A DNA stretch of 64,000 nucleotides from Octopus vulgaris. Taxonomy: Eukaryota. The notes beneath the pieces are model-generated. The model did no database searches. It was not told the DNA's origin and was given only the letters and a program-made list of their open reading frames with translations. Position 1 is the first letter of the stretch. Each line of letters begins with the position of its first letter. The stretch covers positions 102,424,001 to 102,488,000 of the forward strand of contig OX597818.1 of NCBI GenBank assembly GCA_951406725.2, in the 5' to 3' direction. Shown in pieces: positions 12,934 through 60,440 of the stretch. The position numbers and the translations under genes are program-made.

Positions 12934-14172
12934 CGAGGGGCGTTCAATAAATAATGCCTCTGACCCACTTGCAGTTGTTTGATCTAGCTGAGATTTTGCA
13001 TGTGCAATTATTTATATCTCTATAGAGATATCTCTAATTGTGGTTTCTGATTTACAGGTGTTTGAACTGAGTCAAGTGTGAAATGGAGCCTGTTGAGTGT
13101 TGAGCAGTGATCCGGTTTTTGTATTTGAAAGGACGCACACCACGGGAGACTTTTGATGAAATGAAAGTAACTTATGGTGATGATGCCCCATCATATGATC
13201 TTGTAAAACGCTGTTATCGTGAATTCAAACATGGTCGGAACTCTTTGGAAACAGCTCCCAGATCTGGTCGCCCCCTTTCTGCCATTGATGAGGCATCTGT
13301 CCGTCAAGTTGAGGCTGCCATTTTGGAAGATCAACGCATAACTATTCGCCAAATAGCCCATGAGGTCAAGATTAGTACCGGGTCTGTGGAAACTATCATT
13401 CATGACCATTTGCATATGCAAAAGGTGTCTGCCAGATGGATTCCCAGGTTGCTCACACCTTTCCAGAAGGAAGAACGCGTCGAGTGCTCGAGGATGAATT
13501 TGGAGATGTGCCAAGAGGATGAGTCAACATTTTTCAAAAGACTGATTACACAGGAGGAAACCTGGGTCCATCACTATGATCCAGAGACCAAAGCCCAGTC
13601 AATGCAGTGGAAGCACCGTGACTCACCTCCTCCAAAGAAGGCAAGGGTGCAGCCCTCCGCTGGCAAGGTCATGCTCACAGTCTTCTGGGATCAGGACGGA
13701 GTAGTGATGACAGATTTCCTGGCAAAGGGTACCACAATTACAGGAGCCTATTATGCTTCACTTTTGAGGAAATTAAGAGAAGCTATCAAAATCAAGAGGC
13801 GGGGCAAGATCAGCAAAGCATCCTCCTCCTGCAGGACAACGCTCCGGTCCACAACTCGCGTGTAGCCAGATCAGAAGCACAGACGTGCGGCTATGAACTC
13901 CTCCCTCATTCCCCCTACTCTCCTGGCATTGCACTCTCTGATTTTCACCTCTTCCCAGCCATGAAGTTGTTTTTGAAAGGAAAGCGTTTCCCAGATGATG
14001 CAGCCTTGATTTCTAAAGTCACGTCGTGGTTGGAGGAACAAGCTGGGGTCTTCTACAAAAACGGTAACTCTGGGTGGTTTCTATGTAGAAAAAGACTAAT
14101 ACCTGTGCCAATATTCGTTGCTCTACTGCTATGGGAAGTGGGTTAGTGGCATTACTTATTGAACGCCCCTCG
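12934..14172 (+). mobile_element. Near full-length mariner DNA transposon (Hsmar2/irritans-like TIRs)
   Basis: TIRs CGAGGGGCGTTCAATAAATAATGCC / GGCATTACTTATTGAACGCCCCTCG, TA target duplication on both sides, 1239 bp. Confidence 0.95.
13083..14099 (+). pseudogene. Mariner DD34D transposase pseudogene
   Basis: ATG at 13083 with an early TGA; motifs RSGRP, WIPRLL, TQEETW (first catalytic D lost), LLQDNA after a frameshift near 13818, and PYSPGIALSDFHLF; apparent deletion near the 3' end. Confidence 0.93.
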
Positions 14173-15975: not shown

Positions 15976-16477
15976 TCTTCATCACTATATGGTCTCTTAA
16001 TATACACGCAGCCACATCAACACCAGGTAATGACTATATATAGCCACTACAGACTTATTGAAATGATTCCATGATCAGTGTGAAGTATTTCGTATATTTC
16101 TTTAGGGACTATGACCAACTTGATGCACACCGAGCATCTAAATTTTCTTCACGTCGCGACTGCATTTTACAAACTAGTCAACGTTGGTAAGCACTGTTTT
16201 TCAGGGTGTCTTCAAAGCGCCGTTACATTTGTCTCTTTCAATTTGGAGTAGATCATTAAACATGACAGGTCAGCTTATTAGATGTAGAGTAATGATATAC
16301 TAAAATTAAAATAATTTTTGAGTGTTAGAACTGTCACTTGTACAAAGAAGTCTCGAAAGCAACTTATTTGTTAACTGCTTCAGTTTCTGAGATATCTTAG
16401 ATGAGATATATAAGATATATAATTATTATTATTATAAGATATATAATTATCATAATAATTATGATTAATTATTATTA

Positions 16478-16610
16478 TAGAGCAGTGCGTGCCATGAAAG
16501 TGACACTGGTGTAAAATATACAAAGTTCTAAATACCCATTATGACTACCCCTCTGATAAAGTTACACCAGACATCACAACCACATATGCGAGACATGATC
16601 TCATATAAAG
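16478..16610 (-). mobile_element. 5'-truncated copy of the ~545-bp (TAA)n-associated element
   Basis: GAGCAGTGCGTGCCATGAAAGTGACACTGG...CTGATAAAGTTACACCAG matches the left end of the copies at 22795-25149. Confidence 0.85.
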
Positions 16611-16611
16611 G

Positions 16612-16656
16612 TATTGTTGTTGTTGTTGTTGTTAGTATTATTATTATTATTATTAT

Positions 16657-16724
<68 letters not shown>

Positions 16725-16727
16725 AGG

Positions 16728-16780
<53 letters not shown>

Positions 16781-16805
16781 CATCATCATCATCATCATCA
16801 TTATT
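16612..16805. repeat. Compound microsatellite (TTG)n(TTA)n(TAG)n(TTA)n(TCA)n
   Basis: Directly visible in the sequence. Confidence 0.97.
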
Positions 16806-19800
16806 AATATATGTTTGATTTTGGCTTTGCATTTGTAAGTTAACTCCAAGTCTCATCCAGAGACCTCAAGAGACAAGTCAGAACTTGGTGTTAAGCCTAG
16901 GGTATCGTTTATTAGTATTGTTCCAGAGAACGTGTAAGAAAATGTGAGTTGACATAGACAGTGTTTTACGTAGGATATTTTGGAGTTTCGTGGCATCAAC
17001 GCTAGATAAGAATCAGCCCCTTTTACTCTCATTCCTAGGAAACACATGACAATACGTATTGTTTTAGTCTTGAGGTTCTACATTTTGCCAATTTCTATTT
17101 CAAAATATACCTGCTGAGTTTTTGGTAGGTGATGACAGATATATTTACGTCGATTGGGACAGACGTATCAATGAGGAGGCATGATTTTTGTCTGAAGCCC
17201 TTCAATATAATCCCAGGCCTATTCGCTTTTATCTTTCTGTCAGTTTTAACGGTGAGATGTTATCAGTTTCAAACAGTAGAGATGGTTTGTGTTCCCATAG
17301 GTCTTTATAACGTAGCATATCCAGGTTTTAGCAAATTACCCAGCAAATATACACTGCTGCTCTATCATGGCTATTGAGATACTGTGTAGACGCAAGAAAA
17401 CTGCACATGGAGACAACATGATCAATGGTTTCATTTTGTTGTTTACATACATGACATGTTGGATTACTGCCGCTCCTTAATATGTTCGCTTGGTAGTTCC
17501 TGGTAGGTTGGCACTGATCTTGGGCTGCTATGGTACACCCTCCTGTCTCTGAGTTTAAACCAAATGCACTAACCATTGATAGGTAAGGGCTTTGTCAACA
17601 TCGACATTTTTGGCCCTTTGTAGGTATTTGCCATAAAGGTTTTTTCTTGCCATTTATCAGTAAGAATATCTAAGGCAATACTTTTAGCACAGGTTTGCAT
17701 ACGCTTAGCTTTTTCTGTGCTGTTTTCCAGTATGTCTAGTTGTTGGATTTGTGGTATCTGGAATTCAATTGGGTATCCCTTCCGGCGTTTTGTTACTGAG
17801 TATGATGCGTTCTTGTTTTCATGCTTTAAGACAAGTTTTTACATCCAGTAATCAGAGTTTTTCAGATAGTTGTTTAGGCCAATTTTCGCAATCGTCATTA
17901 TTATTTGAATTTGTAAATGTCTACGGCCACCCTCTTTTTTTGGAAGGTAAAATCATTCTATATCTACCTTAGAGTGGGGCATTCTATTCATTGTCAACAA
18001 TTTTCGTATTTCCCTGTCAACATTACATATTTCAGTAATGGACCAGTTAATGATATTGAAATTATAGGTCACGACCAGTATGGCAAAGTTATTGATAGGT
18101 TCGCTCTTGTTTCTTGCATCTAGCCCTGCGATAACATTCTCTTCTGAACCTTTCCCTCATCCTTGAATGTTTGATCCCATTACATTCAAATACCCCTATG
18201 TGTCTGTAGTTTTCCGCGGGTTCTAAATCATTCTGCTGGTCAAGATTAATCTTGGATGCTTCTGACATTTTCCTTTGATAAAGGTAGTTTTTGCACATTT
18301 ATCGAGGCCAGATTGCAGTCTTATGTCATCACATGTTTAACAATTGCTAGTAAACGTTGTAGTTCTTCGTCGTATTTTGCAAAGAGCTTTAAATTATCCA
18401 TCTAAAAGAGATACTTTAAATTTTTATCATATATTTTACAGCGATATTGTATATCATTGAGCAATTTCGAGTGAGCTATTAAGACTAAACAAAAGAGTAG
18501 TTGTGATAGAAAGTCACCCTGGAAAATGCCACATGGAATTCTTACATCTACAGCATTGTCACTGTTCTAAGTCGGTGTGGTTCTCCTTGGTTTCATACTG
18601 ACAGACAAGAAGTTCCGGAAAGTAGGTGGTATTTTATACATTTCCAGACATTTCCAGCTATGTGATCGACTATCAAATGCTTTTTGTATAGTGTACCAAG
18701 TCTATTGATAAGTTGTGTCGTTTGTGACAATCTTCCAAATTCATTTTATTGATGAGTAGCTGATCTTTACAACCATAGGACCCACATTTATATCATATTT
18801 GCTCATTAAAAAAGCTATAGTTGTATTCATTCAAGACAGTTGCTTAATTTGTTTCTTCATTTTTGGAAAGTAGGAATATTAGTCCATTAGCTAGTCAAGA
18901 GGGAATCATACTAGTTTGTTGCAAAACATTGTTGTACAGTTTTGTTAGCAGTTCATGACTCTCTTGGAATGCATTCAACCAGAAGTCAAGAATTTTATCC
19001 TTTCCTGAAGACCTCCATTTGCTTCACTTCCTGAGAGCAGATCTTACATCCTCTACCTTGATACCCTCCCACATTGGTTTTTCTAAGTAGTCTAAGTCAG
19101 TAGATATTCTATCAATCGAAGGGAACGTTTTTGTGTGTCTTTTCCTCCGTCCAAATTTTATTCCAAAATTCCTTCACTTCTACTTTTGAAGGGACAGACT
19201 TTACTCTAACTGACATTTTCCTTGTCTGCCTGTAAAAGGTTTTTGAAGAATCTAAAGCGTTTTTTCATATATTGCTATGCGGGCAACTTTAGCACACCTT
19301 TTGCTTGATAGGTTCTATGCTGGTTTCGATGTGAAGTATGGTTTTCATATTATATTTTTTCTTTAATTTGCGGATTTTTGTTAGTTTAATCGTCTTGTCA
19401 AACTTAAGGTTTTTAGACCCTCTATGCCAGACCTAAGTAGCTGAATTTTGTTGAATACGCTCTCACCAAGTAGGGTTTTCGTGCAAATGTTGTTTTCTAA
19501 TCTTTTCACCACATAGAACCGTTTACATATTCGCGGATGCCTAATATAGGTGGTTGAGATCAGTAATATCGACATCATTAGCTGAAATAACATCCATAAA
19601 TGCATGGTGGATTTCAGAAATTACTTTCAGATTTTGGTTTGAGTTTCGAATATTTGGGAGCGTGTCACGTTCGTTCATACTGGTTTCTTTACTTTTCAGT
19701 CATTCAATCATAATTTGAAGTTTTAGATGATCTAGTTCAGTTGCATGAATTTCTGTGTAACTTTCTACATCTATCTGATTTTCATCTGCCTTGGTGCTTA

Positions 19801-20400: not shown

Positions 20401-21145
20401 AAAAATTTATTTAGTTATTTTTTCACTTCGGTTGAGACATGTACTTTAATTTGCGTATATGTGTGTCATGTAAATTCCACGTAGTTGTGTAAACATTGGG
20501 ACGGGGTTATTTCTAATTGTATTATTGTCATTATTTCAGGCATAATTTATCTTGTACTTCATAATCCCCACATGTATTTCTCTTTTGTATTTACAGTCAA
20601 CGATTCTCGTCAACGCACAAGGCAGTCATTATGCTCCCCACCAAAAAACATCACCACGTGGACTCTGTTGAAAGTTGTAAGAAACAATTATGAACTTTTT
20701 TATTACACTTAACTTTTTAAAATATTTTTGATAAGCTTCGTTTTTTCAAGAATAACCAAAACATGGAAGAATCTCTAAGAAAATTTTTTTAAAATATTTT
20801 TTATAAAAATATACCCACTCGTATGCCACCTACACTTTTTATTTTAAAATATATATATATATATATATATAATTTCAACAATTGAGGGTAAAATTAATTA
20901 ATTAATCAATTTCACCAAGTATTCAGTATGCAAAGGGACCATTTAAGGCGAATTCAAATTATTACATTATATAAAAGGGCTTAGTAAAATAAATTACTTT
21001 GCCGCATACTGAACTCATTAGAAATAGCAGCTAAAAAAACTTTTTTTAAACTATTTCCAATACTTAAAGAAAATCTCTCTCATATAGTGTTTGCTCAATT
21101 CAACTCACGAAAGTATGGGGTAGAGACATTAAAAAATCAAATGCA

Positions 21146-21215
21146 AAGGTTATTTGAGAACGTACGTTTCAAGATCAGTCAAACTCGACACTTCTATCAT
21201 CAGCTCAGAACTCCC
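21146..21215 (-). ncRNA. Type I hammerhead ribozyme (left arm)
   Basis: Minus strand: TGAG-CTGATGA-TAGAAGTGTCGAGTTTGACTGATCTT-GAAAC-GTAC-GTT^CTCA; intact core, stem I TGAG/CTCA, stem III AC/GT with palindromic GTAC loop. Confidence 0.75.
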
Positions 21216-21950
21216 TGGTTTGGATTTGAAAACACTGAAAGTGGGAGCATACCCTTTCGGCTTCCTATCGCTTCTGAAGACCTGCTCGAAACTAACAGTG
21301 CTAGCAAATTCAAATATGCAAGCGAAGAACTTCTGCTCTCCCCTTTCCACCAGCGTGGGTTAAAATCAGTAAACACTATACTTTTTTCGGTAAAATCCGA
21401 GGCATTAAATAGAGAGAGATGAATTATAATTTCAACAATTGAGGGTAAAATTAATTAATTAATCAATTTCACCAAGTATTCAGTATGCAAAGGGACCATT
21501 TAAGGCGAATTCAAATTATTACATTATATAAAAGTATTTCTTTAAGTATTGGAAATAGTTTTAAAAAAGTTTTTTTAGCTGCTATTTCTAATGAGTTCAG
21601 TATGCGGCAAAGTAATTTATTTTACTAAGCCCTTTTATATAATGTAATAATTTGAATTCGCCTTAAATGGTCCCTTTGCATACTGAATACTTGGTGAAAT
21701 TGATTAATTAATTAATTTTACCCTCAATTGTTGAAATTATAATTCATCTCTCTCTATTTAATGCCTCGGATTTTACCGAAAAAAGTATAGTGTTTACTGA
21801 TTTTAACCCACGCTGGTGGAAAGGGGAGAGCAGAAATTCTTCGCTTGCATATTTGAGTTTGTTGGCACTGTTAGTTACGAGCAGATCTTCGAAAGCGATG
21901 AGAAGCCGAAAGGGTATGCTCTCACTTTCAGTGTTTTCAAATCCAAACCA

Positions 21951-22020
21951 GGGAGTTCTGAGCTGATGATAGAAGTGTCGAGTTTGACTAATCTTGAAAC
22001 GTACGTTCTCAAATAACCTT
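21951..22020 (+). ncRNA. Type I hammerhead ribozyme (right arm)
   Basis: CTGATGA at 21963-21969, stem II AGA..GTC/GAC..TCT, GAAAC at 21996-22000, predicted GUU cleavage after 22007, stem I TGAG/CTCA. Atypical U10.1-U11.1 closure. Confidence 0.75.
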
Positions 22021-22192
22021 TGCATTTGATTTTTTAATGTCTCTACCCCCATACTTTCGTGAGTTGAATTGAGCAAACACTATATGAGAGAGATTTTCTT
22101 TAAGTATTGGAAATAGTTTTAAAAAGTTTTTTTAGCTGCTATTTCTAATGAGTTCAGTATGCGGCAAAGTAATTTATTTTACTAAGCCCTTT

Positions 22193-22225
<33 letters not shown>

Positions 22226-22396
22226 CATTCATCTTACTAAGCGTAAATGCCTCACGCTTTGAAGTCATACTAATTAAATAAATATACACGGCACCGAAAG
22301 CGTAGGAATGCAACTTGGAAGCTAACGTTTAGAAAAAGATTTAGTCGCAAATCATTAATGAGACGTGGTTGACGTAACACACTTTCGAATCATCAG

Positions 22397-22452
22397 ATCT
22401 TTGTATTTTGAAAGTTTCTCCGTTTCTTTAGACAAATATTGCCACCTGTAGT
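22397..22452 (-). pseudogene. Tiny restriction-like-endonuclease fragment of an R4/Dong LINE
   Basis: Encodes LSKETEKLSKYKDL, matching SLKEMEKLSKCKDL in the 44-47 kb LINE. Confidence 0.6.
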
Positions 22453-22478: not shown

Positions 22479-22545
<67 letters not shown>

Positions 22546-22547
<2 letters not shown>

Positions 22548-22728
22548 GTCTCACTTTTGACTTGCACTTGTACAAGTTGACTCTAAGTCTCACCCAGAGA
22601 CCTCCATAGACAACAAGATTGACGTTCATGTTGGTGCTATGCCTAGGGTATCACATATTTGGTTTTGGGCATAGTATTGTTCTAGAGAATGTTAAAGAAA
22701 ACATAAGAAAATTGAGTTAGTTTTAAGG

Positions 22729-22730
<2 letters not shown>
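22546..22730 (-). mobile_element. 3'-UTR-only fragment of an R4/Dong-like LINE
   Basis: AAGTCTCACCCAGAGACCTC...GCCTAGGGTATC...TAGTATTGTTCTAGAGAA matches 16845-16930 and 25151-25335. Confidence 0.75.
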
Positions 22731-22794
<64 letters not shown>

Positions 22795-23343
22795 GAGTGA
22801 GAGAGCAGTGCATGCCATCAAAGTGACACTGGGGTAAAAATATACGAAGCCCAATATACCCATCATGACTACACGTCTAATAAGGGTACACTAGGCACAT
22901 GCATTACAACCATATGTGCGCGACATAGTGATCTCATATCAATATAAACAGCACATGATCTTGCAGGTGGGGCCCAGTTAGAATTTTCTTCTGGTCGAGT
23001 AACCCATCCTGCTCAAAAGGTCCCTGAATAAGGGTTGTTTAAGGATGTTGAACGAAACACCCATATTTCCAGAGGTGAATTATTCAAAGCCCAAACAATC
23101 CCTCTCAACATATGGCTATGATGCTCCCCCACTACTTCTGCTCGTGATCAGAGATGCACATACCATCAGCCACTAAGGGACATGCTCAACTGGTTAAGGT
23201 CAAACAACTGACAAGCAAATCTGTGGTATTGAGCAGAATATTTGCTGTAGCCCATCTTTTATACCAAGACAAAACAATATACATGATAACACTTCCAATC
23301 AGTTAAGATTAGAAGCCATGAGAGCCACTGCCTGGTACTGCAT
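22795..23343 (-). mobile_element. ~545-bp non-coding (TAA)n-targeting element, copy 1
   Basis: GAGTGAGAGAGCAGTGCATGCCATCAAAGTGACACTGGGG...GAGCCACTGCCTGGTACTGCA, flanked by (TTA)n. Confidence 0.9.
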
Positions 23344-23365
23344 ATTATTATTATTATTATTATTA

Positions 23366-23430
<65 letters not shown>

Positions 23431-23445
23431 ATTATTATTATTATT

Positions 23446-23985
23446 GAGTGAGAGAGAAGTGCATGCCATTAAGTGACAGTAGGGTAAAATATACGAAGCC
23501 CAGTATACCAATCATGACTACTCGTCTGATAAGGGTACACCGGGCACATGCATCACAACCATATGTGCGCGACATGGTGATCTTATATCAAGATAAACAG
23601 CACATGACCTTGCTGGTGGGGCCCAGTTAGAATTTTTTTCAGGTCGAGTAGCCCATCCTGCTCAAAAAGTCCCTGAATAAGGATTGTTTAACGATGTTGA
23701 ACGAGTCGCCCATGTTTCCAAAGGTGAATTATCCAAACCTCCAAGAATTCCTTTCAACACACGGCTATGATGCTCCCCCACCACTTCTGCTCATGATCAG
23801 AGATGCACATATCGTCAGCCACTAAGAGACATGGTCAAAACAACTGACAAGCAAATCTGTGATATTGAGCAGAATATTTGCTCTAGCCCATCTTTTATAC
23901 CAAGACAAAACAATGTACATGATGACACTTCCAATCAGTCAAGATCACAAGCCATGAGAGCCACTGCCTGGAACTGCATCAGGGC

Positions 23986-23987
<2 letters not shown>
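23446..23987 (-). mobile_element. ~545-bp element, copy 2
   Basis: Colinear with copy 1; ends ...GCATCAGGGCATT followed by (TTA)n. Confidence 0.9.
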
Positions 23988-24062
<75 letters not shown>

Positions 24063-24072
24063 TCTTTTATTA

Positions 24073-24137
<65 letters not shown>

Positions 24138-24639
24138 GAGTGAGTGAGAGTGCAGTGCATGCGATCAAAGTGACACTGGGGTAAAATATACAAAGCCCAG
24201 TATACCCATCATGACTACCCATCTGATAAGGGTACACCAGGCACATGCATCACAACCATATGTGCGCGACATGGTGATCTCATATCAAGATAAACAGCAC
24301 ATGACCTTGCAAGTGGAGCCCAGTTAAAATTTTCTTTTGGTCGAGTAACCGATCCCGCTCAAACGGTCCCTGAATAAGGGTTGCTTTAGGATGTTGAACG
24401 AAACACCCATGTTTCCAGAGGTGAATTCTGCTTGTGATCAGAGATGCACATATCGTCAGTCACTAAGGGACATGCTCAACTGGTTATGGTCAAACAACTG
24501 ACAAGCAAATCTGTGGTATTGAGCAGAATATTTGCTGTAGCCCATCTTTTATACCCAGACAAAACAATGTACATGAAAACACTTCCAATCAGTTAAGATC
24601 AGAAGCCATGAGAGCCACTGCCTGGTACTGCATCAGGGC

Positions 24640-24641
<2 letters not shown>
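24138..24641 (-). mobile_element. ~545-bp element, copy 3 (internal deletion near 24427)
   Basis: Colinear with copies 1-2 but lacks the ~60-bp CAACATATGGCTATGATGCTCC segment. Confidence 0.9.
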
Positions 24642-24696
<55 letters not shown>

Positions 24697-25149
24697 GTGA
24701 GAGCAGTGCATGCCATCAAAGTGACACTGGGGTAAAATATACGAAGCCCAATATATCCAGCATGACTACCCGTCTGATAAGGGTACACTAGGCAGATATA
24801 TGATAACCATATGTGCGTTACATGATGATCTCATATCTAGATAAACTGCACATGTCCTTGTAGGTGGGGCCCAGTTAGAATTTTCTTCTGGTCGTGTGAC
24901 CCATCCCGCTCAAAAGGTCGCTGAATAAGTGTTGTTTAAGGATGTTGAACAAAACACCCATGTTTCCAGTGGTGAATTATTCAAACTCCAAAGAATCCCT
25001 CTCAACATATGGCTATGATGCTCCTCCACTACTTCTTTTCATGATCAGAGATGCACATACCTTCAGCCACTAAGGGGCATGCTCAACTGGTTAAGGTCAA
25101 ACAACTGACGAGCAAATCTGTGGTATTGAGCACAATATTTGCTGTAGCC
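24697..25149 (-). mobile_element. ~545-bp element, copy 4 (5'-truncated)
   Basis: Colinear up to GCTGTAGCC, then joins the LINE 3'-UTR fragment. Confidence 0.88.
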
Positions 25150-25150
25150 T

Positions 25151-25335
25151 ATCTTGACTTTTGCTTTGTACGTGTACAAGTTGGCTCCAAGTCTTACCGT
25201 GAGACCTCAAGAGACAACAAGTTAGATGGTCATGTTTGTGTTATGCCTAGGGTATCAAATATTTGGTTTTGCGCATAGTATTGTTCTAGATAATGTTTAA
25301 GAAAGCATAAGAAAATTATGAGTTTGTTTTAAAAT
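25151..25335 (-). mobile_element. 3'-UTR-only fragment of an R4/Dong-like LINE
   Basis: Colinear with 22546-22730. Confidence 0.75.
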
Positions 25336-27675
25336 TCATTATTATTATTGTTGTTGTTGCTGTTATTTTATCCATGCTGAATATGTATTGTGATATATTT
25401 GTTATTGAGTTGTTGGATGTTGGTGTAATAAATGCAAAGTGTTAAAAATAGACAACGACAAAGATTGGTGTATATGAGGATGCATGGCAAAAATCGGATC
25501 TGTGTATGATAAAGATTTATACTGAGAGATTTCGATTAGATTTGATTGGAATCACCCAGGTTATATGGCATAAGAATTACTGCTACGGAAATATCGAGCA
25601 ATGAGCAATAAAAATTTTAGTGAGGATGCAAGAGAGAAGTTGTTGCAGTGAGAAGCGGCTGCAATTATTGTAACAAGTACGAGATCAGTTGAAATGGGAG
25701 GAACGCATCTAGGGAGAGATTAATTGAGGCGGGAGATAGTATTAATGACAGTGGTTAACTGAAAGAGATGAAATACGCGCACACGGCACACTCACAACAG
25801 TGCATGTCAAGTGGACTGAAGATCCCAGTAGGAAGACGTTATAATGAGCTTAAAGAGAACTGAGATATCTAAGGAGTGATGAATAATGTAGAGATACGAA
25901 TTAATAACATAATCAGTAGAGTGTCACACTAAATGTCATGCGATGTTTCGTCAAATCTTTAATTTGTGAGTTCATGTAACATCAAAGTCAAGCATTGACT
26001 TTCACTCTCCCGTTAAGCTGCCAACAACGTACAGGAATTGATAGGATCACGTATTTCCTGACCATTAAAAATCATTGAATTTGAGCCCAAATTTGTAACT
26101 GTTATTACATGATATATCCGTAGGTTTCATTGTTTCATTCGAAAGAAGTTGATGGAGAGAAAACCGTAATTTATAGTACGTAACAAGAAGGATCAAAAAC
26201 AATATAAAACACGAGTTAGGATATCTTGAACATTACTCCGAACGTCCAGCAAAATCCTACACTGTCTTTTTATTAATGACTTTACGGATTTGTCCTTAAA
26301 TATTGTTTAACTGTCAAGTTTAATATTTCCGCCACATATTAGATATAAAGCAGTCACAACAAGTAAAATGGTAAGCGAGTTATGCCCACACGCATACACA
26401 GATGTGTACTCATGAATATATTCACATACACTCATAACAGCGTACGCACATGCGTGTATAAATTCATATGTATATAAATAAATATATATATAAATACATA
26501 CATACATACATACATACATATATTTATATATATATTTAATTTTATTAATTATGGAATACAAATTCCGGCATAACAGGGGTTCAAATTATTCTCAATGAGG
26601 AAATACATATTTTCATTTAGAGATACTAGGCCCCTTCATCTCACCATATAAAAAAGAATTTAAATTTAAGTACTAACTGCTTTATAATTTGGCTACACGT
26701 GTTTCATGAAGTACATTTCTCGGTTTCTAAATCACACCGTGTTTTGCTGAAACCATTCTTAAAATATAATCCCAATCATCAGGCCCTTATATCACTTTAT
26801 CATCGTTCAATACTATAAACAATATTTTAATTTTTTTTAAACCAATAAATATGTGTAAAAATATGTGTGAAAATATGTTCGCCGGACCCTACTTTACAAG
26901 CCATAATTTAATTCGAATAATAAATTACAAAAATTAAAAATAATTAAAAATAAAAAAAATAAAAAGAAATAAATAAAATTTTAAAATTTCATATATATAT
27001 TCATAAGAGTAGGTTGACAACGCGAAGAACAGATATCAAAAGTGTAGTGCTTAGATACTGAGATAACAAATTCCTACCCCTTCAACCAGTGCCTCAGGCG
27101 TGAAAATTTAGCTATAAAACGTGTAAACTCGAGCTAATGTGGAACTAGTCGTTTTATCGCCGCTTACAACTTTTTTAGCGTTATTCATCTTACCTTCCAG
27201 GTCAGTTTAATTATGTTTGAATTTACAACAGAGATAGCATAGTATTTTTACAAATATATCTCTCTGATTAATTAATCGAATGATTAATGGCTAAATAGCA
27301 AATTGAATGATGAATAACAAAGAAGTGAAATAGAGTGTGATTTTTGCATAATGACTCTCTCGGGACACTACCAGTATATAATTCTTTCGGTTTAAAATTA
27401 ATCGTACACTACCATGCATCACATACTTACATGATTTCTTATTGCCGTTGCTGTTCAGCATCAATTAAAAACTATTTTAATACATCTATGATTAATACTG
27501 TTGATGCAGCATTTAACTCTCCTCTATAATGCGTAATCCGTTGATCAAATATTGTAGAATACTATTCAAGAGAAAATTTGGTTGACATATTTAGTAGATC
27601 GTGCTATAAAGAATGTTTCATTGCGTTGAGTTAATTTACAACCACTTTATTCAAATCAAAGTTAGGTTTGCTATG

Positions 27676-42120: not shown

Positions 42121-42127
42121 TTCTAAC

Positions 42128-43225
42128 ATGGAAGTATCCAAAGAGTATGTGATGCACATGATACTTTATGTGTACAAAAAGTAATCTCTGCAGCCGAAGC
42201 TACTCCAAACATGCACTTAGTTTATGGGAAAGAATGCTTGAATGAAATAAATTGCAGAACATCCTCTGCAAATTTCAGAAGTGGAGGATTCGGCCTTGAA
42301 GATGAAGATCGAACAGGATGTCCAGTTGAGTTTGATGATAAGCTCCTTGAGGCATTACTTGAAGAAAATCCTGCTTTATCAGTCGAAGAATTGGCAATAA
42401 AGCTTAGTTCAAACCATACAACTGTTTATTGTCATCTTCAACATTTCGGAAAGGTTCCTAAACTTGGAAAATGGGTACCTCATGAATTGTCCGAAAGAAA
42501 CCGCAAGTCCGGAGTTAACATTTGCTCTTCTCTCTATTCTCTTGAACGCATTTCACCCTTTTCCGATAGACTTGTGACTGGTGACGAAAAATGGATCTAT
42601 CGAAATGATAAACGTCTGAAGCAGTGGCTTAGTAAAAGGGACAAAGCACAACCGAGAAGGGAACTTCATGGGAAAAAGATTCTTCTCCCTATCTAGTGGG
42701 ATTGCAAAAGAGTAATTCACTTTGAATTATTACCACCTAATGCAACAATCAATGCTCAAGTCTACTGTCAATAATTAGAACGTTTGTACCAAGCTTTGAC
42801 GAAAAATAGAACCCGCTTTAGTGAATCGAAAAGGAGCGATGTTTCATCAGGACAACGCTCGACCACACGCTGCAAAGATCACATCAAAGACGATCGAAGA
42901 TCTTGATTGGTAAAAAAACAATTCTTATCCACCTTATTCTCCTGAACTTGCTTCTTCGGAATACCATTTGTTTCGTAGTTTACAGAATCATTTGTGGGAC
43001 ATAACTTTCGCAAGCCAGGTGGAGGTCAAAACTTACATTTCGGATTTCTTCGTTTTGAAACCAAAAGAGTTTTACATTGGTGGGATTAAAAAGCTTGTTA
43101 ATAGATGGAAGGAAATCATAGATAATCAGGAAAAGTACATCGATGATTAAATTTCAATTAAAAATGACATTTGATCACTTGTTTTCTATATTCAAAATTC
43201 GGACAGAACTTATCGAATGACCTGA
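42128..43225 (+). mobile_element. Mariner relic (DD34D pseudogene, 3' TIR present, 5' TIR missing)
   Basis: Motifs KWVPHEL, VTGDEKW, FHQDNARPH, PPYSPELASSEYHLF and KYIDD*; ends GGACAGAACTTATCGAATGACCTGA followed by TA; several stops and frameshifts. Confidence 0.92.
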
Positions 43226-43830: not shown

Positions 43831-44039
43831 ACCGGGGGACGTTTAAGATGTAAGAACGATAAAACAGAGCTCCGAAATCTATCCACAAACATCGAAAACA
43901 AGGACATCGTATGGAGCCAAAGATTTACTAACAAAGGATTGGACTGTATCCGAGTAAGTAATACTCATTGAAATTTATTACTATTTTCGAAACGAAATGA
44001 TGTATTTTGACTCGATATCATCTCCACCTCTAACACAAG

Positions 44040-47364
<3,325 letters not shown>

Positions 47365-55751: not shown

Positions 55752-55850
55752 TATATATATATATTTATAATAGGATTAGCTCGTATACGAGTAGGTATAT
55801 ATTTGTAAAAAATGAAGTTCGAAAATGCTGCTGTATTATACAATTTTTAA

Positions 55851-55921
55851 TTTTTATATATACATTATAACATGTTTCAGTTCCTGAAATGAACCTTATC
55901 AAAAAAAGTTATATATAAAAA
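55851..55921 (-). ncRNA. Variant type I hammerhead ribozyme in the left pLTR
   Basis: Mirror copy of 60269-60339. Confidence 0.55.
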
Positions 55922-56243
55922 GAGACAGCTCATGCCGTCAAACACAAGAAATTCATTTATAATACACAACGGAGTCAGACATCTTAGAGTTCATGTATAG
56001 TTGATATATAGTTCATGTATAGTTGATATATAGTTTGAAGTATATTTCAAAGTGTTCGATGCAGTGGCCCACGGTGGCGATACGTATTCAATACAAAAAA
56101 CAGATCAAAGTGGTGGAAAGCGGTCAATACAGAAGATTGATGTTTCCGAAAGAGCGAGGAATTCATTTTTACCTTAAGCAATTGTGATGACCCATGGTGG
56201 AAGTTCGCTGGGTGGTTCTAGTGATTTTTTGTGAAATGCTTGG

Positions 56244-56616
56244 TTTTATAATGCCTGTTAGGTGGTCAATCTAGCGTAGCGTGACGTCATCAATGTTTTG
56301 ACCAATCGTTTCGTTAGGTGGCTTTAATCAAGTGGAACGGGACGTCATCATTATTTTGACCAATCGCTGCATTATAACTCCTCTTGTTTGTTTCCTGTCT
56401 TGACCAGTCGCTTCGTTAGTCAAGCATAGCGGGATGTCATTCAGATTCTGCCCAATCACGACTTATAGCTACATTAGATCTGCCCCCTGTCTGTACTTGT
56501 TAGGTGACTATTCAAGCAGAAAAGGACGTCATCAATATTCTGACTAATGACTGTCCCCTGTTTGTATCCTGTCCATTCTAGCAGAGCTAGACGTCATCAA
56601 CTTGTTGACCAATCAG
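56244..56616 (-). promoter_or_regulatory. pLTR promoter: 5x (ATTGG-N12-TGACGTC) plus TATAAAA, pointing left
   Basis: Mirror copy of 59573-59946. Confidence 0.7.
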
Positions 56617-56782
56617 AATCGGGTCTGACCCTTAGCTGTATCGTATGTATCAGGGTCAGATTTGCACGAAAGAATTTTTTTCCTTTTTTTACTAAGGCAT
56701 ATTTCCGTCAGAGTGAGTGTCTGTTTGAAGTAGCGGCCGTGGTGAAATTTGGTTCTCCTTTTCGGAGGACTTATCTTTTGTT

Positions 56783-58939
56783 TTAGTATTCCTGGCCCAG
56801 GGTGTTTAAACTTGGTCTAAATTTTTTTATGAAATATAGTTCTTTATTTTGGCGTTGTGTGAAGGTTGCGTTGTCACTGAATTTATAGAGCGGGTTAGTT
56901 GTAAATTTCGGATTTACATTTCCAGCACATCTATCTATGTGTCCGCTGACCGGTATTTTGCGGTAATCAGGGTTTCTAATTTGTGATTTATGCACCGCCA
57001 TCCTGTTACGTAAGCTATTTTTTGTATGGCCTATATACTGCCTATTGCAGCCTGCGCATGTTATGACGTAAATTAAGTTTTCTGATGCGCAGGTGAAGTT
57101 TGTTCTAATGGTGAACTGGTGGCCTTGTTCCAGTATAAATTCTGATCCTTCTTTCAAGATGACACAGATTCCGCAGTTGGGCCTTCCACATTTTCTAACT
57201 GCTGGTTTTGTGGTTGATGTTGAGTGCAGTGTAGCTTGGGTTAAAATCCTTTTCAAGGATTTTGGTTGCCGTTTACTTTTAATGATGGTGTGTGTTTCGA
57301 GGATCCGGTTCATCTTTGGGTCTCCCTTTAGTAGGGCTGTGCTTTGTAGTATGGTGTTGAAGGCCTCATTGTTGAGTGGGTTGTGTGTAGAGATGTAGGG
57401 AAGGGTTTTTAATTGTTCTTTCTTTTTTGGTTTTGTTTGTCTCAGGTCTTCTATACTTAATTTAAGTACCCGTTGGATTGCACTGTCTATTAGGGGCTGT
57501 GGATAGTTTCTATTTGTGAGTGTGGTTGTAAGTTCCTGGAGACGTGTGTGTCGGGTGTTTGTGTCTGATATTATGGTGCAAATCCTTCTAGCTAAACAAA
57601 AAGGGACATTCATTCTAGTGTGTCGTGGGTGGCATGAATCAAAGGGTAGGTACTGTTTAGAGTCTGTCGGTTTATAGTAGATATCTGTCTCTATTTTGTT
57701 GCCGGTTATCTTAATGAGGATGTCTAAAAATGGTAATTCTTTTTCGTTGTGATCCATCGTGAATTGTATATTGTCATTTATTCCATTTAATAGAATTTTA
57801 AATTCCTCAAGTTTCTCTATGCCTTTGTCCCAGATGATGAAACAGTCATCGAGGTATCTTTTCCAGTTGTTATGGATATAGGTGGCGAAGGTGTTGCCAT
57901 ATTTCTCGAGTGTCATCCGGTATAGTATTTTCTCGAGGTATCCCATCACTAGGTTGGCAAAAGATGGTGCAGTACGCGTGCCCATCGCTGTTCCCGATCT
58001 TTGCCTGTAGAAATCATTGTCAAAAATAAAATAATTGTTCTCTAAAATGAATCTAAGTCCTTCTATTATTAGGTCTTTGTTTATGCGAGTTGGGAGTTCA
58101 AAGGGGTAGTTATTCAGCCAGAAGGTGATTGCTTCTATTCCTAGGTTGTGAGGGATGTTAGAATAAAGATTAACTACGTCGAATGATACTAGAAGGGTTT
58201 TCTCATTGACTGTTTTAGGGAGGTGGTTGAGCATATCTATATCGTCTCTTACGTAGCTTTTGATGTGTTTTAGGAAAGGTTTAAGAAGTGTGTCTAAGAA
58301 ATTGCTGAGGCGGTGAGTTTCCCATGCTGGCCCTGCTATTATCGGTCTTCGTTTAAGATCATTTGGTGAAGGGATTTTGATGAGTGTGTCGGTGGATGTT
58401 TTGCACGTTTCTCTAATGGTTTGGCTTTTGTGTACCTTAGGGATACCATAGAACAAACTCGATTTGCATTTGAAGTTAGTGATGTATTCATACTCCTTGT
58501 TCGTGAGTCCTTCTTGGTATGTGTTGATTAATGTCCTAAGGTTATGCATTATTTTTTGCTGGTTATACTGTTGGGCCCTTTCATAATACGTTTCATCTCT
58601 TAATAGGGATAGCACTAAATTTTTATAATTGTTTGTATTCATTATTACTATCGCGTTGCCCTTATCTGCCTCCTTAATTGTTATTGTTTTGTCTTCTTTT
58701 AGTTTGATGAGGTCGTTCCATTCTCTTTTGTTGAAGTTAGGGCTGTGTTTTTGTTTCTTGATGAATTGAAACGGGAAATTAGTTATGTAGTCACAATAGC
58801 GGTCTAAGGCTTTATTCTTACCTTTGGTGGGGGTGTAATTGCTCTTGTTTCTAGCTATTGAGTCCTCCTCTATTTGTTTGTCTTGAAATGCCTCGGTGAG
58901 TCTTAGTTTTCTGCAAAATTCCGAAATATCATCTTTCAT
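56783..58939 (-). CDS. Penelope-like reverse transcriptase / GIY-YIG endonuclease (Neptune-like), 5'-truncated; frame open up to ~59027
   Basis: LSKGLKFTPTP upstream of the listed Met; ADKG, FYGIPKVHK, RPII, SFDVVNLYSNIP, GTAMG, RYLDD, LPFLD; Cys linker CGRPNCGIC; GIY-YIG NLIYVITCAGCNRQYIGHT..R..H. Confidence 0.95.
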   Translation of the reverse strand: MKDDISEFCRKLRLTEAFQDKQIEEDSIARNKSNYTPTKGKNKALDRYCDYITNFPFQFIKKQKHSPNFNKREWNDLIKLKEDKTITIKEADKGNAIVIMNTNNYKNLVLSLLRDETYYERAQQYNQQKIMHNLRTLINTYQEGLTNKEYEYITNFKCKSSLFYGIPKVHKSQTIRETCKTSTDTLIKIPSPNDLKRRPIIAGPAWETHRLSNFLDTLLKPFLKHIKSYVRDDIDMLNHLPKTVNEKTLLVSFDVVNLYSNIPHNLGIEAITFWLNNYPFELPTRINKDLIIEGLRFILENNYFIFDNDFYRQRSGTAMGTRTAPSFANLVMGYLEKILYRMTLEKYGNTFATYIHNNWKRYLDDCFIIWDKGIEKLEEFKILLNGINDNIQFTMDHNEKELPFLDILIKITGNKIETDIYYKPTDSKQYLPFDSCHPRHTRMNVPFCLARRICTIISDTNTRHTRLQELTTTLTNRNYPQPLIDSAIQRVLKLSIEDLRQTKPKKKEQLKTLPYISTHNPLNNEAFNTILQSTALLKGDPKMNRILETHTIIKSKRQPKSLKRILTQATLHSTSTTKPAVRKCGRPNCGICVILKEGSEFILEQGHQFTIRTNFTCASENLIYVITCAGCNRQYIGHTKNSLRNRMAVHKSQIRNPDYRKIPVSGHIDRCAGNVNPKFTTNPLYKFSDNATFTQRQNKELYFIKKFRPSLNTLGQEY

Positions 58940-59031
58940 TTCATAATAATTAGAACGTTGTGGGGTGGGTGTAAATTTAAGTCCTTTGGAGAGTATGCTT
59001 ATTTCGTTAGGTGTAAGTTCTTTGTCCTATC

Positions 59032-59406
59032 TTGAAAGAAGGATCAGAATTTATACTGGAACAAGGCCACCAGTTCATCATTAGAACAAACTTCACCTGC
59101 GCATCAGAAAACTTAATTTACGTCATAACATGCGCAGGCTGCAATAGGCAGTATATAGGCCATACAAAAAATAGCTTACGTAACAGGATGGCGGTGCATA
59201 AATCACAAATTAGAAACCCTGATTACCGCAAAATACCGGTCAGCGGACACATAGATAGATGTGCTGGAAATGTAAATCCGAAATTTACAACTAACCCGCT
59301 CTATAAATTCAGTGACAACGCAACCTTCACACAACGCCAAAATAAAGAACTATATTTCATAAAAAAATTTAGACCAAGTTTAAACACCCTGGGCCAGGAA
59401 TACTAA
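59032..59406 (+). pseudogene. Inverted duplicate of the GIY-YIG C-terminus within the right arm
   Basis: 124 aa identical to the end of the 718-aa ORF except T->I; no true start codon. Confidence 0.92.
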
Positions 59407-59572
59407 AACAAAAGATAAGTCCTCCGAAAAGGAGAACCAAATTTCACCACGGCCGCTACTTCAAACAGACACTCACTCTGACGGAAATATGCCTTAGTAA
59501 AAAAGGGAACAAAATTCTTTCGTGCAAATCTGACCCTGATACATACGATACAGCTAAGGGTCAGACCCGATT

Positions 59573-59946
59573 CTGATTGGTCAACAAGTTGATGACGTCT
59601 AGCTCTGCTAGAATGGACAGGATACAAACAGGGGACAGTCATTAGTCAGAATATTGATGACGTCCTTTTCTGCTTGAATAGTCACCTAACAAGTACAGAC
59701 AGGGGGCAGATCTAATGTAGCTATAAGTCGTGATTGGGCAGAATCTGAATGACATCCCGCTATGCTTGACTAACGAAGCGACTGGTCAAGACAGGAAACA
59801 AACAAGAGGGAGTTATAATGCAGCGATTGGTCAAAATAATGATGACGTCCCGTTCCACTTGATTAAAGCCACCTAACGAAACGATTGGTCAAAACATTGA
59901 TGACGTCACGCTACGCTAGATTGACCACCTAACAGGCATTATAAAA
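59573..59946 (+). promoter_or_regulatory. pLTR promoter: 5x (ATTGG-N12-TGACGTC) plus TATAAAA, pointing right
   Basis: ATTGG/ATTAG at 59576, 59641, 59733, 59826 and 59884, each exactly 12 bp before TGACGTC/TGACATC; TATAAAA at 59940-59946. Confidence 0.7.
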
Positions 59947-60268
59947 CCAAGCATTTCACAAAAAATCACTAGAACCACCCAGCGAACTTCCACCATGGGT
60001 CATCACAATTGCTTAAGGTAAAAATGAATTCCTCGCTCTTTCGGAAACATCAATCTTCTGTATTGACCGCTTTCCACCACTTTGATCTGTTTTTTGTATT
60101 GAATACGTATCGCCACCGTGGGCCACTGCATCGAACACTTTGAAATATACTTCAAACTATATATCAACTATACATGAACTATATATCAACTATACATGAA
60201 CTCTAAGATGTCTGACTCCGTTGTGTATTATAAATGAATTTCTTGTGTTTGACGGCATGAGCTGTCTC

Positions 60269-60339
60269 TTTTTATATATAACTTTTTTTGATAAGGTTCA
60301 TTTCAGGAACTGAAACATGTTATAATGTATATATAAAAA
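60269..60339 (+). ncRNA. Variant type I hammerhead ribozyme in the right pLTR
   Basis: TTGATAA (U3-A8 in place of C3-G8) - GGTTC ATTTCAG GAACT - GAAAC AT GT T; distal stem I TTTTTATATATA/TATATATAAAAA. Confidence 0.55.
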
Positions 60340-60383
60340 TTAAAAATTGTATAATACAGCAGCATTTTCGAACTTCATTTTTT

Positions 60384-60440
<57 letters not shown>

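Follow-up and report, generated by a model that had tools for sequence, protein, structure and literature searches.

A putative Penelope-mobilised hammerhead retrozyme family of Octopus vulgaris with a conserved, viroid-shaped predicted RNA fold

The window (the whole 64,000-nucleotide stretch of Octopus vulgaris DNA analysed here, contig OX597818.1, positions 102,424,001 to 102,488,000 of the forward strand) contains an insertion of a non-coding, high-copy hammerhead retroelement. Our main reading, to which we give a probability of roughly 0.7, is that the RNA fold of this element is under selection, and that its RNA, likely excised as a monomer by hammerheads predicted to act in pairs, likely closes into a circle and is then likely copied into (TA)n, from two fixed starts, by a Penelope-type enzyme. 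Judged from its sequence, the element would be an animal non-LTR retrozyme that works like a non-autonomous Penelope element.

Results

A two-armed insertion from a dispersed family

Positions 20868-22203 form a single insertion between (TA)n runs, made of two 667-nt arms lying back to back, each with a 110-nt terminal repeat and the two in differing circular permutations:

20849..20871, no strand: left (TA)n target microsatellite, seen in the sequence
20868..21534, minus strand: arm A, 1.2 turns of a 557-nt unit, ending 3' at site S2 and bearing a 110-nt terminal repeat
21537..22203, plus strand: arm B, 1.2 turns of a 558-nt unit in another circular permutation, ending 3' at site S1 and meeting arm A 5'-to-5'
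21836..21922, plus strand: mosaic segment, with alleles that match another subfamily, carrying the G that makes the proposed mask (see below) perfect
22193..22225, no strand: right (TA)n target microsatellite

The unit length of 557 nt given in an earlier note on this DNA is thus that of the inverted arm A, whereas the hammerhead-strand arm B has 558 nt. No ORF of at least 170 aa was found at the retrozyme locus. The two arms differ by 2.5%, an outlier against the median of 0.6% (48 insertions). Over the inner hairpin, arm B is a mosaic of two subfamilies, which could have arisen by template switching or gene conversion.

The element belongs to a high-copy, dispersed, non-coding mobile repeat family. 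Ribozyme-core matches in the genome exceed 2,400: exact matches to four variants of the core motif numbered 1,422, 12, 1,016 and 132, against 0, 0, 7 and 0 for the reversed-pattern controls. Compared with the window unit, identity falls from 98% in the closest subfamilies to about 68% in the most diverged, and arrays hold up to 11 full units with 0-2 changes between neighbours. Additionally, there is a distant 594-nt family (L214), whose BLAST likeness to the window family is limited to the hairpin region, at about 72%, with none detectable in the rod. It has the same rod, three hairpins, inner hairpin and ribozyme, and its fold scores z -6.1. Members of this family (L214 on contig C4:94554697-94557872; L203-L252) have a GUA site and a long stem II, with the same fold and the same two 3' ends, and its hairpin region gave 1,805 first-look candidates. 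A further group (L101-L112) comprises copies with a CCGAUGA core, mostly of a 545-nt subfamily that lacks the tip of the inner hairpin, in arrays of up to 5; letters similar to these copies are also present in sequencing runs labelled as a second organism.

A predicted type I hammerhead on one strand

Each arm contains one hammerhead motif, in the order TGAG, CUGAUGA, a stem II opening with U.U, GAAA, ACGUACGU, GUU and CUCA:

21959..22011, plus strand: predicted type I hammerhead, called from core motifs and covariation
21959-21962 with 22008-22011, plus strand: stem I
21963-21969, plus strand: core CUGAUGA
21970-21995, plus strand: stem II, first pair U.U
21996-21999, plus strand: GAAA
21999-22006, plus strand: palindromic stem III, ACGUACGU
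22007, plus strand: predicted cut site, after GUU
21155..21207, minus strand: arm A copy of the hammerhead, core starting at 21203

The call rests on these motifs and on covariation rather than on Rfam, which gave no match in the whole window at gathering thresholds and, at E up to 10 over 20700-22400, five weak matches with no hammerhead among them. Viroids replicate from RNA to RNA, and hammerhead viroids carry ribozymes on both strands; in contrast, when the unit was scanned on both strands, a CUGAUGA...GAAA core with stems was present on one strand only. The window ribozyme departs from the usual form in its GUU site, in a U.U replacing the usual G10.1-C11.1, and in a stem III of 2 bp, and by its sequence it looks weak. 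The core variant CCGAUGA gave its 12 matches at five loci, four of which are tandem. Since this variant still occurs in tandem and the window ribozyme looks weak, ribozyme activity may be dispensable.

The body of the unit is predicted to fold as a branched rod

The earlier note had described the unit as a compact branched rod of nested helices. All 16 of the motifs that it paired lie where it placed them on the plus strand, and all eight helices, including the one proposed to mask the ribozyme, occur in the circular minimum free energy (MFE) structure. Read directly from the sequence, five of the pairs are perfect and three contain a bulge, mismatch or G.U. With start positions, they are AAACACTATA (22075) with TATAGTGTTT (21786), GAGAGAGAT (22086) with ATCTCTCTC (21746), CTCTACCCC (22041) with GGGGAGAG (21823), CGTGAGTTGAA (22058) with TTTAACCCACG (21802), TTCAGTATGC (21596) with GCATACTGAA (21678), GGTGAAATT (21693) with AATTTTACC (21714), GAAATAG (21552) with CTATTTC (21582), and the masking helix, CTCAAATA (22008) with TATTTGAG (21850). 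The helices nest as described, but they do so on the plain linear sequence from 21537 to 22094 without requiring a circle, so nesting by itself is no proof of one. The structure comprises:

21547..21593, plus strand: hairpin H1 of 13 pairs (GAAATAG/CTATTTC), with a second copy from about 22105; in 24 representatives, mean P 0.78, pairing in 94% of cells and one double-change column
21595..21688, plus strand: helix H2 (TTCAGTATGC/GCATACTGAA), with an inner hairpin and an A/U-rich open loop containing S1; C-G to U-A in 14 of 24
21693..21722, plus strand: hairpin H3 (GGTGAAATT/AATTTTACC); mean P 0.87, 99% paired and no double change in 24 representatives
21746..21849, plus strand: rod, first strand, pairing with 22021-22094; lowest identity (0.71) yet paired, with several double changes
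21852..21947, plus strand: inner hairpin, base 21852-21861 with 21938-21947; conserved partner of the 'masking' site
22021..22094, plus strand: rod, second strand

Folded as a circle, 21537-22094 reaches an MFE of -151.9 kcal/mol, compared with -112.5 +/- 6.7 in 100 dinucleotide shuffles (best shuffle -130.5), giving z -5.9. The arm A unit gives z -5.8. Five other subfamilies also fold, at z -4.1 to -10.0, and a self-paired circle is predicted in eight units over the same range. The antisense strand scores z -5.0, so the z-score alone does not pick a strand.

Changes among copies preserve pairing on the ribozyme strand

Neither of the outcomes that the earlier note had named as refuting its fold was seen: the compact fold beats its shuffled controls, and copies carry compensatory changes. 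These were counted on a tree of 24 subfamily representatives, six of an initial 30 having been dropped as chimeric across the inversion or internally duplicated or deleted, and on 131 pairs taken from the window copy alone. Double changes on the same branch that keep a pair numbered 9, against 1.6 +/- 1.2 expected (maximum 7 in 300). Single changes that keep pairs were in excess (117 against 97.5 +/- 5.6), and those that break them were depleted (137 against 174.3 +/- 6.2). A separate count over 14 sequences and 119 pairs, a structure that was itself chosen from the ensembles of the same 14 sequences, found 27 cells changed on both sides, against 7.9 +/- 2.2 and reached by none of 500 shuffles; 96.5% of cells were paired, compared with 39-47% in slid controls. 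RNAalifold on gap-projected rows distorted the rod, and its result was set aside.

Similarly, in the young subfamily (77 full-turn arms), paired sites changed mostly from A-U to G.U or from G-C to G.U, and shared events that break pairs numbered 35 against 54.3 +/- 4.6 expected, with a slight bias because the structure was taken from one of the copies. Among shared events, A-to-G changes exceeded T-to-C (48 against 19). We considered A-to-I editing as the source of this excess; singletons within insertions are symmetric (15 against 13), however, and selection for wobble pairs therefore explains it better.

One could suppose that the helices are simply relics of old inverted duplications in a MITE- or satellite-like DNA repeat with no RNA function. 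Such a history might account for the near-equal folding of the antisense strand and for the inversions seen at almost every insertion of the family. However, at the 77 pairs shared by the two strands, single changes that preserve pairing number 46 if the RNA is sense and 19 if it is antisense, suggesting selection on RNA of the ribozyme strand and not on DNA hairpins. The double changes above the null expectation, the persistence of the layout through complete sequence turnover in the distant 594-nt family, and insertion ends that match a reverse-transcription pattern (below) also speak against relics. The strand-biased changes and the distant-family fold largely refute this explanation, which we regard as highly improbable, and we conclude with confidence that the body fold is under RNA-level selection. 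Conservation is uneven: identity between representatives is 0.71-0.78 in the rod strands, 0.83 in the ribozyme, 0.90 in the tail that follows S1 and 0.93 in H2 up to S1. The best-conserved part of the unit is therefore the hairpin module around the two copy-start sites, not the ribozyme.

The proposed masking strand is not a family feature

The earlier note had also suggested that, once the RNA is circular, a body strand captures the 3' strand of stem I and switches the ribozyme off, as in viroids and plant retrozymes:

21850..21857, plus strand: TATTTGAG, the proposed masking site, varying among copies

The helix does exist in the window copy, where 22008-22015 pairs with 21850-21857 in the MFE of arm B with probabilities of about 0.6-0.7. 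Moreover, seven of its eight pairs survive in most young-subfamily copies, and in that subfamily the active fold is never the predicted majority (+3.3 to +13.7 kcal/mol, 59 copies). As a conserved switch, however, it does not hold: its probability exceeds 0.5 in 6 of 61 copies, and averages 0.08 in the 24 representatives, just two of which have two or more expected pairs. The perfect site occurs in arm B only, within the mosaic segment 21836-21922; arm A of this insertion has TATTTGAA instead. Of 77 arms, 42 end the site with A and 34 with G, and the A turns the end pair of the mask into C.A while remaining compatible with the other partner, 21938-21947. Indeed, it is with 21938-21947 that the bases of the site are predicted to pair instead (mean P 0.53-0.75, 97-99% of cells, 24 representatives). 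One outer column of the masking helix does change from A-U to G-C in 7 of 24 representatives, but it sits beyond a bulge and a mismatch.

The energetics point the same way. In calculations that leave out tertiary contacts, the active fold already costs +6.0 kcal/mol in the isolated ribozyme and +6.9 in the window circle, so that the rest of the circle adds 0.9 kcal/mol (median 0.7 in 23 representatives), although in 5 of the 23 the body penalises the active fold by more than 2 kcal/mol. In the distant 594-nt family, stem I folds at P up to 0.92. The available part of PMC7229834 predicts a blocked ribozyme for some mussel retrozymes. Across 61 copies, 24 representatives and the distant family, we found no conserved blocking strand of the viroid or plant LTR retrozyme type. 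On these predicted folds masking fails as a family feature, and we consider it very unlikely as the general off-switch, while a mask switch may act in some copies.

A likelier off-switch, in our predictions, is the palindromic stem III. This stem has 2-4 pairs and is self-complementary in five different sequences of 6-10 nt; in 260 contexts, which were not fully de-duplicated and of which the commonest variant was selected by motif, nine were not self-complementary, and these represent three variants (seven contexts plus singletons). A double hammerhead is predicted at -29.0 kcal/mol against -14.4 for two single active folds, while the unconstrained dimer fold is lower still, at -34.0. In the available part of PMC4209133, such an arrangement of stem III is described as one that lets multimers cleave while sparing monomer circles. 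We lean slightly towards dimer gating of this type as the main off-switch.

Insertion ends follow a Penelope-type pattern

The 3' ends of the arms fall at two fixed sites within the hairpin module:

21641..21646, plus strand: S1, first fixed 3' end, a putative reverse-transcription start
21647..21741, plus strand: 'tail' of about 95 nt between S1 and S2 (S2 at 21741), holding the 3' strand of H2 and hairpin H3

S1 lies in the H2 loop and S2 just after H3, both in A/U-rich and only partly paired surroundings. Among 75 insertions, 53 had S1+S2, one had S2+S2 and none S1+S1; 15 combined one S1 or S2 end with a truncated other side, and six had other arrangements. One-of-each ends were therefore present in 53 of the 54 insertions with both ends at fixed sites (P 3e-15 if each end were chosen independently and evenly). 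Older subfamilies and the distant family use the same two ends with some exceptions, and departures from the two-end rule are L113 (S2+S2) and L251 (S1+S1). Within one insertion the arms differ by a median of 0.6% (48 insertions), whereas arms of different insertions are about 4% apart; the two arms of an insertion therefore come from a common template lineage. Insertions are flanked by (TA)n, and the start sites show TA microhomology to the target.

These features resemble what the available parts of the literature describe for Penelope elements. Penelope traits include inverted 5'-truncated arms, tails on one side only and (TA)n targets (PMC8557442), and an anole Penelope reverse transcriptase (RT) used in vitro two internal start sites that delimit a tail, nicking and extending both strands, with a dimer predicted (PMC11167929). 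We think it very probable that the retrozyme is Penelope-mobilised. The term 'viroid-like', applied to the unit in the earlier note, is true of its shape only; in the genome the unit leaves the footprint of a retroelement mobilised by Penelope.

The genome also contains a young Penelope-type family with RT and GIY-YIG domains, the same two-end (TA)n layout and many intact 781-aa open frames, as seen among the 150 of 6,136 candidates that were scored. Its copy in the window is a candidate helper:

55770-60390: Penelope-like element, two back-to-back arms in (TA)n, one arm about 26 nt longer
56783-59026, minus strand: 747-aa open frame with RT (E 2e-6, just under the Pfam cut-off), a cysteine-rich linker and, at the C terminus, GIY-YIG

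The tail of this element is about 26 nt, against about 95 nt in the retrozyme. We found no sequence link between the two (best E 0.063), nor, among the 150 candidates scored, any sequence shared with 25 GIY-YIG loci, next to which only one retrozyme fragment lay. A relaxed type I scan of 18 GIY-YIG loci returned one match, L154, on the minus strand near 249 from that end and beside a Penelope copy. Penelope protein matches adjoin eight retrozyme loci (L055 overlaps L054), as possible parts of the element, and no such match lies between the members of five widely spaced ribozyme pairs. The 3' region of the window Penelope-like element has repeated CCAAT/TGACGTCA-like motifs, which we take to be a possible internal promoter.

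Other repeats in the window include an array at 22545-25370 of diverged units of about 600-650 bp (82-93% alike) with (TTA)n runs between them, and related pieces near 16400-16950. Two broken frames at 13104-14146 and 42127-42696 are, by eye from their translations, presumably mariner-like transposases, and the frames at 44034-46846, also broken, are what we take to be those of a non-LTR retrotransposon; they include a reverse transcriptase and an inserted (GAA)n run, which translates as poly-Glu.

Circular or linear template

Because the ribozyme is kept and the arms are long, we prefer a circle over an uncut multimer, and from the sequence evidence the template was probably circular. The same element and enzyme could instead use a linear, uncut multimeric array transcript, with the fold selected for Penelope binding and RNA stability and circles a by-product or absent. 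Such a template would produce an identical genomic footprint, and it would also fit the linear nesting of all helices and the arrays still formed by the CCGAUGA variant. The available part of PMC11167929 reports that, for the anole Penelope, the one tested in vitro, RT worked on unprocessed RNA and the ribozyme was not required, and, in that of 10.64898/2026.07.22.740005, eight of nine predicted frog retrozyme dimers did not cleave. The predicted cut junction is clean: the exact upstream 12-mer is present in 186 of 200 pieces, and the two flanking bins contain 0 and 1 indels against up to 78 elsewhere, in a test biased by loci chosen partly for an intact core. Uncut RNA would explain this equally well. 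An RT jumping across a cut end was rejected, since the junction is nearly free of indels and only about three arms end within a few bases of the cut site.

On the other hand, copies as low as about 68% identical, and the distant family too, retain the ribozyme core, stem I, the covariation of stem II and the palindrome. Arms of 4-11 near-identical units, which in some insertions occur on both sides, are more simply derived from a circle, and related animal retrozymes make abundant circles (PMC7229834, in the part available). We therefore regard a linear template as unlikely and retain the circle. Among runs recorded as RNA, none was found to contain the unit. Contigs from four runs presumed to be RNA extend over it; with no silent-stretch control they weigh neither for nor against expression, and contigs do not reveal circles.

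Discussion

These results suggest a model whereby a multimeric transcript would fold with the rod closing around the ribozyme, and two hammerheads would pair via the palindromic stem III and cut. In the resulting monomer, stem I would hold both ends together for ligation, giving a one-ribozyme circle that would be stable without a masking strand. The H1-H2-H3 module would then bind a Penelope RT/GIY-YIG dimer and present S1 and S2; both nicked (TA)n strands would prime on a single RNA template, one per site, on A/U microhomology. Each cDNA would run on round the template, and the far ends would then be joined.

The closest relatives are the animal non-LTR retrozymes, as described in the available parts of PMC7229834 and 10.64898/2026.07.22.740005. 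Like the window family, these are non-coding tandem units with one type I hammerhead per unit, low G+C, a highly self-paired predicted circle, a mostly unblocked ribozyme and Penelope as the likely helper. The 558-nt window unit exceeds the 170-400 nt RNAs of PMC7229834 but lies within the 51-972 bp of 10.64898/2026.07.22.740005, where many Xenopus retrozyme families link to a Penelope pLTR, a link that we did not find for the window family. Covariation for the body fold, two-armed insertions and fixed 3' ends occur in the window family and not in the available parts of either source.

From the EN+ Penelope-like elements (PMC8557442, PMC11167929 and PMC4209133, each in the part available) the family differs in having no ORF and a tail of about 95 nt rather than 30-40, and it shares with them an inverted 5'-truncated arm, a tail at one end, two internal RT starts, A/T-rich or (TA)n targets and a palindromic stem III. 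Its start sites show TA microhomology to the target, whereas the anole element needed none, according to the same part of PMC11167929. With hammerhead viroids and plant LTR retrozymes, as far as the available part of PMC7229834 describes them, it shares the rod-and-branch predicted fold of a ribozyme-bearing circle; unlike them, it has no conserved blocking strand, a type I rather than type III hammerhead and no LTR layout, and it spreads by genomic insertion. According to the same source, the ribozyme is free of blocking in most animal retrozyme circles, in contrast to plant retrozymes and viroids, some mussel circles being the exception.

Our literature search, mostly outside subscription papers, supplements and Repbase, returned no paper on compensatory changes in circular metazoan retrozymes, on which the supplementary folds of PMC7229834 may bear, and none on non-autonomous Penelope-like hammerhead elements with a microsatellite target, inverted arm and tail. 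Judged by title, none of the papers on octopus retrozymes or octopus hammerhead ribozymes concerned the window family. What the locus adds is covariation in support of the body fold, evidence that a distant family keeps this fold, a module of hairpins surrounding the start sites, and the rejection of masking as a family feature.

Animal retrozyme folds in the available literature were drawn from single-sequence predictions; to these the window family adds covariation across subfamilies and a second family. The stability of a circle would more likely come from a ribozyme that needs a partner than from a masking strand. The element is also a short, well-delimited RNA with which one could test template recognition by Penelope enzymes and the way they begin synthesis on both DNA strands. 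Tentatively, and with the odds against it, we propose that these are viroid-shaped circular RNAs under RNA-level selection in an animal genome, in which the rod and ribozyme are swappable while a constant landing pad of three hairpins holds a Penelope RT dimer, whose two protomers would begin at S1 and S2, respectively, of a single circle and copy it into both strands of one (TA)n cut. If true, the family would be a minimal natural substrate showing how Penelope enzymes choose their RNA and why their tails are one-sided.
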